Positions 1-8,072 of a stretch of DNA of 14,121 bases are shown here, one piece after another. Position numbers and translations under genes: made by a program. Below the pieces are notes generated by a model. The model was not told where the DNA came from. It worked only from the letters and a program-made list of their open reading frames with translations, and did no database searches. This DNA is from a virus (lineage: Duplodnaviria > Heunggongvirae > Uroviricota > Caudoviricetes), in IMG/VR virus record IMGVR_UViG_2778261420_000023; one strand, given 5' to 3'. Each line of letters opens with the position of its first letter. Position 1 is the first letter of the stretch.

Positions 1-30
1 ACACCCACTCTATTTAAATACCGTCTTTTT

Positions 31-75
31 GTCACTGTGTGTCACTGGTTGTCACTCTCCGTCACGGTATGTCAC
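31..75. repeat. Five direct GTCAC repeats at exact 10-bp spacing (starts 31, 41, 51, 61, 71), just downstream of the last minus-strand gene
   Basis: Read directly: gtcactgtgt / gtcactggtt / gtcactctcc / gtcacggtat / gtcacc. One copy per helical turn suggests a protein-binding array. Confidence 0.6.
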
Positions 76-81
76 CACAAG

Positions 82-375
82 TTAACGTCGTAACCGCTCC
101 GGCTTCTTCCAGTGGTAAGTAATTTTTTCTTTCTCCTGGTACATCTCCACGCGGCGACGATATGACAACAACTCCAGAACTCTGGTGCGTATATTGCGTA
201 TATCCACGCCGTTAAGCTCGATACCGTCACGGCGCATCACCTCAGCCACCACACGCGCGTAATTTTCGGCTATCACGCTGTCCGGCTGCGTGGCCTCCTG
301 TTTGCCTGCTTCCTGGCTGATTCCGGTAACGCGACGGATTATTTTTAGTAGTTCGGTTTCGCTCATTCTCGTCAT
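82..375 (-). CDS. Hypothetical small protein, last gene of the packaging operon (possibly a head-tail adaptor/joining protein)
   Basis: 97-aa ORF; ATG at 375 overlaps the terL stop (ATGA), indicating translational coupling; a second in-frame ATG lies at 366. No motif recognised; the function is a guess from position. Confidence 0.45.
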   Translation of the reverse strand: MTRMSETELLKIIRRVTGISQEAGKQEATQPDSVIAENYARVVAEVMRRDGIELNGVDIRNIRTRVLELLSYRRRVEMYQEKEKITYHWKKPERLRR

Positions 376-2373: not shown

Positions 2374-2661
2374 GTTCTTTTTTCGCCCAATTATTTTCAA
2401 AAAAATTCCCGTGCACAAAAATTTGAGGAGGCGGTCGGTGTCCGGCAGGGACGGTTTCGTCCTGAAAACCACCCCCACCCCCTCTGACGGCCTCACCAGC
2501 GATTGCGAAAACATTCCATGACCTCGCGGTCACGGTCGGTTAATTGCTTCGCTGTGGTGCGTTCTGTGCGCCCTGTCCTGTTGGCTTTGTGCCCTGTCTC
2601 CTGTGTCTTCCATAAGTCACGCTGCCTTATCAGTCCACGTATCAGCCTGGTTTGCTCCTGT
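2374..2661. other. Candidate cos / terminase recognition region between HNH and terS
   Basis: 288-bp non-coding gap where HK97-like cos phages carry cos. Contains a C-rich tract (ccacccccaccccctc, ~2470-2486), a 5-bp-stem hairpin (ggacg gttt cgtcc, ~2449-2462) and an imperfect direct repeat TGTGC(G)CCCTGTC(TC)CTG at 2565-2580 and 2588-2603. Confidence 0.35.
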
Positions 2662-6641: not shown

Positions 6642-6890
6642 TTATTGTTTCACTGGCTCCCGCATTCTGCGTCTTATTTTCCACAAATATTCGATCATCG
6701 CTTCCACCTGCTCACGGTTGGTTGCGAAAATTTCCCCGGTCAGTGAGCTACGCAGAAAATCATGATGATCCACAAAAAATAACGCATCGGAAGAAAGCAA
6801 CCGACGATATTTTTTTGCTGTCGTGGTTTCCAGATCATCAAAACCATGAAGCTTTTTATGTTGCTGAACTTCTTCAAATGTCACTGGCAT
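6642..6890 (-). CDS. Hypothetical protein
   Basis: 82-aa ORF; ATG at 6890 preceded by AAGGGGGA SD; overlaps the 3' end of the ProQ/FinO-like gene by 10 nt. Confidence 0.5.
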   Translation of the reverse strand: MPVTFEEVQQHKKLHGFDDLETTTAKKYRRLLSSDALFFVDHHDFLRSSLTGEIFATNREQVEAMIEYLWKIRRRMREPVKQ

Positions 6891-7885: not shown

Positions 7886-7949
7886 GCTGTCTGTTCTCCG
7901 GTTTTAACGTTGATTGTTACGCTTGTTTACACCCTTACGGTGAAATTCT

Positions 7950-8072
7950 GCGGGTTATAATCGCACTTTTGCGGGTTATAACTGCCGTTTTGCGGGTTAC
8001 GTGCGGGTTATTGATTTCCTTTTTATTCATGCAGTTAATGCACTTATACACAGGATAACCCGCATAACCCGC
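7950..8072. repeat. Candidate replication origin: four direct GCGGGTTA iterons, an AT-rich spacer and two inverted copies
   Basis: Direct copies start at 7950, 7971, 7992 and 8003 (21/21/11-bp spacing); AT-rich 8011-8050; inverted ATAACCCGC at 8055-8063 and 8064-8072. Immediately 3' of the primase/helicase gene. Confidence 0.6.

Follow-up and report, generated by a model that had tools for sequence, protein, structure and literature searches.

A phased GTCAC array in a capsid-forming phage satellite of Escherichia coli is a candidate orphan iteron cassette

Loci that act by iteron titration or handcuffing, and origin-derived phage resistance, are known, with P1 incA and lactococcal 'Per' as examples. 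Repeats that bind an initiator can also be part of the gene that encodes it. In phage SPP1, gp38 binds direct repeats that are situated inside its own gene (PMC6316719). In phage lambda, iterons supplied in trans (ITN3-4 on a plasmid) inhibit rep-lambda phages (PMC3349717). The origin of a PICI has iterons that flank an AT-rich region and is found immediately 3' of rep (PMC6092414). The conflict between satellites and their helper phages is now explained by proteins, i.e., by capsid remodelling, by Rpp/Ppi packaging redirection and by the defence genes of accessory hot-spots.

The window analyzed here is 14,121 nt in length (IMG/VR record IMGVR_UViG_2778261420_000023) and is an exact match to E. 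coli chromosomes. The host island in NZ_CP024223.1 is 15.06 kb and is inserted in yifB/comM. It is bounded by the 16-bp direct repeats ATCCGCTATT(T/G)ATAAT, which split yifB/comM. All of the island genes are on the - strand. They encode an integrase, an AlpA-like HTH regulator, an Icd-like protein, a DUF4222 protein, a DUF927 primase, an SSB, a ProQ/FinO-family protein, a major capsid protein, a prohead protease, a portal protein, a head-tail connector, an HNH endonuclease, a P27-family TerS, a TerL and a protein of 97 aa. Capsid-forming PICIs have such a gene content (10.1101/2022.09.08.507074), and the window belongs to this class of satellites in E. coli. The first nucleotide of the window is 697 bp inside the island.

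Positions 31–75 of the window (+ strand) contain five copies of GTCAC that begin at positions 31, 41, 51, 61 and 71. The five copies and their exact 10-bp spacing had been pointed out in the original prediction, and the positions and the simulations described here agree with it. The 10-nt units are, in order, TGTCACTGTG, TGTCACTGGT, TGTCACTCTC, CGTCACGGTA and TGTCACCACA, and four of the five have the hexamer TGTCAC. GTCAC is read on the strand opposite to that of the island operon; the operon strand reads GTGACA or GTGACG. There is no overall enrichment of the pentamer, with 29 matches in the whole window vs 23.7 expected. Other 5-mers in the window show at most two in-register copies at periods of 6 to 15. 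Five phased copies of GTCAC are observed, and none of 2000 first-order Markov simulations gave more than three. The GTCAC signal in the window is confirmed as a phased cluster that is far beyond chance. GTCAC does not recur in phase elsewhere in the island. A search of approximately 0.98 Mb of related satellite loci shows arrays of at least three units only at the orf97-distal position described here and at one other site, in the satellite locus L148. The L148 array (positions 6648–6683) is a second, GTCACG-type array in mid-island non-coding DNA and reads GTCACGGCAC GTCACGATAT GTCACTATCAC GTCACG. It is independent of the orf97-distal array and its orientation is reversed relative to the operon.

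The gene that adjoins the array is the last gene of the operon, the 97-aa ORF (orf97, positions 82–375, - strand), which belongs to phrog_1561 and has no assigned function. Its stop codon (positions 82–84) is separated from the array by 6 nt. The array had been described as following the last packaging gene; it is near the end of the operon as proposed, but its neighbor is this ORF without a known function. On the other side of the array is a conserved flank at positions 20–30 (+ strand), ACCGTCTTTTT, or AAAAAGACGGT on the operon strand. It forms part of a 47-bp common block and is retained in array types A, B and C. Positions 1–19 (- strand) consist of an AT-rich palindrome, TATTTAAATA, and the beginning of a hairpin (GGGTGTTTAATACCC + CCCGTTTTTT) that a scan picked out as terminator-like. 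The hairpin (positions 16006–15992 of the island locus L001, - strand) runs past the window start and is about 25 nt beyond the array along the operon strand. An AT-rich stretch always adjoins the array, either as TATTTAAATA...TTTTT or as GATTTTTAATGG...TTTTT. A promoter scan of the distal block revealed nothing significant and only one weak promoter-like match; the -35 of this match would be the last GTGACA, and the match is not kept in the other flank type.

The location of the array on the operon strand, between a stop codon and a terminator-like hairpin, would suit an RNA element in a 3' UTR, where (GUGAC-N5)n could act as a sponge for a protein, influence stability or give rise to a small RNA. 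The array is predicted to be largely unstructured, and in the predicted fold the segment AAAAAGACGG that trails it pairs with CCGUUUUUUU, the U-tract of the downstream terminator. However, RNA folding is no better than that of shuffled sequences (z = -0.75 and -1.33), the Rfam and tRNA scans of the distal block gave no significant match, and the L148 array is reversed relative to the operon. The strict 10-nt phasing, together with the presence of identical arrays inside phage genes (see below), argues for recognition of duplex DNA. An RNA element is therefore a very improbable explanation.

The distribution of the array was surveyed in 63 scorable satellites that carry an orf97 homolog. Its taxonomic range is that of an optional cassette of E. 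coli and Shigella satellites. Conservation of the array position across related islands, a check put forward with the original prediction, is found in part: the array is always downstream of an orf97 homolog, at a distance of 6–400 nt, but it is present in only 27 of the 63 satellites, as a GTGAC array of 3–5 units, and is absent in 36. A comparison of 11 array alleles shows that none of the 25 core columns is variable vs 10 of the 25 spacer columns (Fisher p = 6e-4). The five spacers inside one array are mutually unrelated. Copy number varies from three to five by the loss of whole units, with different units lost in different alleles, and a divergent three-unit allele (L127) has its cores intact. 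The 47-bp block (window positions 20–66) is the only stretch held in common with the satellite loci L002 and L084–L089, and it joins satellites that have unrelated flanks on both sides. The islands with an array vary in integrase, att site and replicase, which may be of the DUF927, RepA-helicase or primase type, and some of them have no terminase. The invariant pentamer and the helical phase imply a constraint, as expected for cooperative binding of protein to duplex DNA. The array is a discrete, selectively maintained and exchangeable cassette.

In O157:H7 genomes the match to the query is limited to the arm region (query positions 54–218) and the array is not matched. The prototype capsid-forming PICI of O157:H7 probably has no array, since only its arm region matches; this would explain why the published deletions do not bear on the array. 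In the papers on capsid-forming PICIs that were consulted, no mapping of cos, ori or a GTCAC array was found.

The array always follows an orf97 homolog, with a terminator-like hairpin directly after it, and this could point to a binder closer at hand, either a protein of the island (orf97, the DUF4222 protein or the AlpA-like regulator) or a regulator of the host, with a local role at the operon end such as termination control, autoregulation or a roadblock. Direct repeats of the form pentamer-N5 are typical of the binding sites of OmpR-family response regulators, which is a point in favor of this type of binder. Several results are against it. Two satellites (L098 and L100) have an orf97 that is 99–100% identical and have no array. 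The AF2 model of orf97 has a pLDDT of 69 and is all-helical, with no PDB match at E < 1. Pfam shows no match to orf97 and assigns it to no DNA-binding family, its relatives in a deep profile search make up a narrow family only, and the isolated-phage collection has no orf97 homologs. None of the protein clusters formed at 35%, 80% or 95% identity is positively associated with the array; the only strong association is a negative one, with PerC, and PerC is a lineage marker. GTCAC is nowhere else in phase within the island. Binding by an island protein or a host regulator is thus unlikely. Among host proteins, MatP recognizes matS, which has GTGAC as its half-site. As matS is a 13-bp palindrome, unlike the direct repeats of the array, MatP/matS was set aside.

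There is also a similarity to integrase arm sites. The lambda sites P'1–P'3 contain GTCACT, are direct repeats and are 10 bp apart, and the island Int does have an arm-binding domain. The array had been proposed to represent arm-type sites of Int near the distal att junction, and it could also consist of mimics of lambda-type Int arm sites. Arm-type sites should be no more than about 200 bp away from the crossover core, in the arms of att; those of the lambda type lie within ~150 bp of it and are integrase-specific. Recovery of the flank had been put forward as a check with the original prediction, and its outcome is against arm-type sites. The att core is at L001 positions 15304–15319 and the array at L001 positions 16031–16075, a distance of 712 bp, the window having its start 697 bp within the island. 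The distance is 450–715 bp in other islands, with unrelated DNA in between. At least four integrase/att types (yifB, thiM/rcnR, tRNA-Pro and clpS) are represented among the islands that share the array. The arm-binding domain of the island Int is Pfam Arm-DNA-bind_3, and this domain is carried by P4-type integrases. No phased GTCAC is present near the int-proximal att core.

The arm positions at both ends of the island hold other repeats. RACTACACC is present in two copies (12-bp spacing) and GGAACAA/GAACAA in two to three copies, at L001 positions 15388–15441 and 30203–30266, which places them 70–165 bp from both att cores. In related islands, GAACAA is present in three copies at 10-bp spacing, and this is the sole other regular array of the distal region. 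The RACTACACC, GGAACAA and GAACAA repeats are likely the Int and excisionase arm sites, and they are probably the 'GRACAA arrays' from which the GTCAC array had been distinguished. On the basis of distance, integrase independence and the presence of other repeats in the arms, Int arm sites were rejected; the array can hardly be of this type.

The position at the end of the packaging operon is also consistent with recognition sites for packaging, e.g., cosB- or pac-like sites for TerS, and this had been a further proposal. One unrelated group of phages has TGTCACCGTT tandem repeats upstream of the portal gene. The conservation data are not in agreement with a packaging role. Of 80 cross-genus islands with a TerL that is 70–92% identical, 79 are missing the array and the exception is from Shigella. 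Some satellites with neither TerS nor TerL nevertheless have the array, and orf97 is found in satellites without a terminase as well. A non-coding block of about 50 bp upstream of terS is a better candidate for cos. It is at window positions 2391–2444 (- strand), upstream of terS by 18–71 nt (the gene starts at 2373), and it is conserved at 81–91% between the islands of E. coli and those of Proteus, Xenorhabdus, Pasteurellaceae and Gilliamella. The block has no GTCAC repeat. Because it is conserved above the level of neighboring sequence, it is the probable cos of capsid-forming PICIs. Terminase sites were rejected on these grounds, and it is most improbable that the array is used in packaging.

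Two related arrangements were also considered. Rpp proteins are 139–154 aa and the associated cos is upstream of rpp (PMC9026076); the array locus differs from the Rpp/PICI-cos arrangement in both size and topology, and this arrangement was rejected. A cosB role by way of lambda cosN-like strings, which were found by eye in the distal block, was dropped as the spacing between these strings and the array is variable (~70, 180 and 430 bp). The TGTCACCGTT repeats mentioned above are perfect tandem repeats of 4–7 copies just upstream of the portal gene (L177, positions 542–577; also L203, L257 and L270). The contigs are from metagenomic phages, and the GTCAC array is here in a packaging and not a replication context.

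The island has an origin of its own. The iterons, TAACCCGC, are at window positions 7938–8060, immediately 3' of the DUF927 primase gene, with four on the - strand, an AT-rich gap and two on the + strand. In other satellites that have the array, the replicase genes are followed by CCCCAC, TCTACC or CCCAC iterons. All of these sets, TAACCCGC included, fit the published PICI layout. GTCAC is absent from the island origin, and the array does not have the properties of a cognate ori or crr of the PICI or P4 type. In P4, by comparison, ori and crr have identical iterons, and these are bound by the alpha primase-helicase that P4 itself encodes. The P4 crr is located after the terminator of the alpha operon and beside the attP arms, and the distal block of the island has the same topology. 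The type-1 iterons of P4 (GGTGAACAG), which are 10–11 bp apart, differ from the (A/G)GTGACA of the array by one inserted base. The P4-like duplication in the island consists, however, of the TAACCCGC blocks and not of the GTCAC array. The second iteron/AT-rich/iteron block is at L001 positions 15676–15828, outside of the window and ~200 bp from the array; it is not found in L083, the distal region of which is otherwise similar.

RefSeq has a 111-aa hypothetical protein, WP_235777884.1, at L001 positions 15750–16085 (+ strand), and this overlaps window positions 1–85. The ORF extends across both the iteron repeats and the GTCAC repeats. As it has no family match and the DNA is not conserved as a unit, it is probably not a true gene.

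Phage genomes present a closer parallel. IMG/VR was scanned for the pattern GTCAC-N5-GTCAC-N5-GTCAC, and many contigs from temperate phages were found to have two arrays, 260–300 bp apart, within one ORF. The first array is in the N-terminal coding region. The second is in a linker, and a (GATAAAGATA)n tract comes after it. The ORF belongs to phrog_3729, 'replication initiation protein', and its annotation in Escherichia phages is either 'replisome organiser' or 'DNA replication protein O' (e.g., in vB_EcoS-640R1, ON470612); the N-terminal domain is ~70% identical in Pseudomonas and Aeromonas phages. An iterative HMM search with this domain showed GTCAC arrays in 64 of 65 viral loci that encode it. 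Of 112 pairs of array and initiator, 111 have the array within the initiator gene itself, in the orientation of the coding strand. The consensus, (T)GTCAC(G), was derived from 115 distinct arrays with 444 units in total; the period is 10, sometimes 11, and there are 3–6 copies. The in-gene layout parallels that of SPP1 gp38 and oriL (PMC6316719). From sequence comparisons, we infer that the phage GTCAC arrays represent the binding sites of the initiator. Among 5426 complete E. coli genomes, 2078 (~38%) have this initiator module and its arrays. Two GTCAC(G) arrays, which are independent of reading frame, are found in the replisome-organiser gene of L173 (positions 1336–2412) and in those of ~60 similar loci. 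A description of the iterons of these genes was not found in the searchable literature.

Arrays of the same format are associated with other replication genes. In divergent contigs, replication-initiator and replisome-organiser PHROG families account for six of eight further in-gene arrays. With TGTCACT-type arrays, seven of the eight large ORFs that adjoin them are primase or helicase proteins, with D5_N+DUF5906, Prim-Pol, Toprim, VapE-like and AAA_25 domains. At two loci (L368 and L321) the array was read as being within a few bases of the 3' end of the primase/helicase gene, which is the position of the PICI and P4 origins (PMC6092414; P4 annotation). The in-gene initiator arrays and the arrays beside primase-helicase genes together suggest that GTCAC at a spacing of one helical turn is a widespread origin-iteron design.

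The satellite array has the format of these iterons, i.e., 3–5 direct repeats exactly 10 bp apart, and is identical to the iterons of phage O/G38P-like proteins in the GTCAC core, the 10-bp phase, the copy number (3–6 in phages) and the preference for T before the core. There are also differences. The satellite array is intergenic and has no cognate initiator in cis, whereas the phage arrays are in-gene. It has an AT-rich flank of 20–25 bp without a periodic tract; the second phage array is accompanied by (GATAAAGATA)n or a similar tract. Phage iterons most often have G directly after the core (61%) and T is the rarest base there (8%), but T is present in three units of the satellite array. 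Spacers of satellite and phage arrays have similarity at chance level, and a BLAST search of the 47-bp block against phages showed no relative. Common descent from phage arrays was rejected, as the spacers are at chance and the single 17-nt identity (TGTCACGGCGTGTCACT) is too little to support it. As a consequence, the link between satellite and phage arrays is one of a 5–6 bp core, the period and the copy number. Since GTCAC arrays are found with several unrelated classes of initiator, the identity of the binder is ambiguous.

When the N-terminal domain of the phage initiator was compared with the island ORFs and with six-frame ORFs of the window, there was no match. The array is thus an orphan, in that the island origin uses other iterons and a matching initiator is not encoded. 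The explanation that we favor, with a probability of roughly 40%, is that the array may represent a selected cassette of orphan, initiator-type iterons that would be bound in trans by the initiator of a helper phage or of a co-resident element. An initiator of this kind would bind cooperatively, on one helix face, by means of its origin-binding domain. The best candidate is a replisome organiser of temperate E. coli phages that is similar to lambda O and SPP1 G38P. Of the roles that had been suggested for a phased protein-binding array, the general concept is retained without the integrase and terminase sites, and binding by a helper protein has survived in a narrower form, with a phage replication initiator as the candidate on the basis of the motif match to phage arrays.

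What such binding would accomplish is a separate question. Binding could serve in titration or handcuffing of the phage initiator after amplification of the satellite, or could provide a barrier to replication forks or transcription at the operon end. Alternatively, the array may be an auxiliary origin that is fired by the helper, where the phage initiator would open the AT-rich DNA and the helper machinery would replicate the satellite or the integrated island. The motif evidence is the same for an auxiliary origin as for binding in trans, an AT-rich stretch is always beside the array, and the second iteron/AT-rich/iteron block of the island is close by. The short-period tract of the phage type is absent on both sides of the array, however, and every island with the array has its own replicase and origin. 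An auxiliary origin is accordingly a rather unlikely function. As there is no periodic unwinding tract and the islands already have complete replicons, a role in binding only is favored for the orphan iterons.

A decoy is more probable than an auxiliary origin. Satellites would then carry iterons, without any protein, that mimic the origin used by a very common family of temperate-phage replication initiators and that titrate or handcuff such an initiator once the satellite has been amplified. The effect could be a throttling of the replication of the helper or of a competitor phage, or a change in its timing to the benefit of the satellite. The decoy would be a protein-free module of interference or defence in the PICI accessory hot-spot. 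This more specific proposal is considerably less likely than not. There is a precedent in the 'inhibition phenotype' of lambda, where repeats that bind the initiator are present in trans without a functional origin (PMC3349717). The architecture of an orphan array that lacks a periodic unwinding tract is compatible with an iteron decoy or incompatibility locus of this kind. The incA, Per and lambda cases differ from the array in that they represent copy control of the same replicon or laboratory constructs; the array is natural and would be directed at another element. No other iteron-mimic cassettes are present in the hot-spot, where the only other regular array is that of the att-proximal GAACAA repeats, and the decoy reading therefore has no general pattern behind it.

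The concept of orphan iterons has several implications. Iterons directed at the initiator of another element would, if this is correct, be a layer of interference or exploitation that is encoded purely in DNA, and would link the incompatibility logic of plasmids to phage satellites. Any effect may be ecologically relevant, as the candidate target module is present in more than a third of complete E. coli genomes. Initiator iterons are well known; their apparent carriage by phage satellites in an orphaned and exchangeable form would be a new aspect. Even if the array is not a decoy, it is a mobile non-coding element that is clearly under selection, in islands of a family that has been studied well, and GTCAC arrays with 10-bp spacing are documented here, at the level of sequence, as an apparently widespread design of phage origins.

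The region that surrounds the array has additional features. Between orf97 and attR, the first ~700 nt downstream of the orf97 homolog in the satellite loci L093–L172, which correspond to the DNA just outside window position 1, are a mosaic of hairpin units of 45–50 bp, an example of which is CTGATATTTTCGGAAACCTCAATTTGAGGAAGTCGGCGCGGTAAC. The ends of the units copy the 3' end of orf97 (..CGGCGGTAACT). This stretch looks like a hot-spot of cassette exchange with repeated boundary sequences. An alternative cassette, GGAATGACCGAAGGCGGAAATTCGCC...GAAACTACGGAAACTACCCGTAGTTTGGGTAGT, is situated ~200–330 nt downstream of orf97 in several satellites (L113, L118, L132, L157 and others). It is present in 14 of the 36 array-negative satellites vs none of the 27 array-positive ones, and it has direct and inverted repeats of its own.
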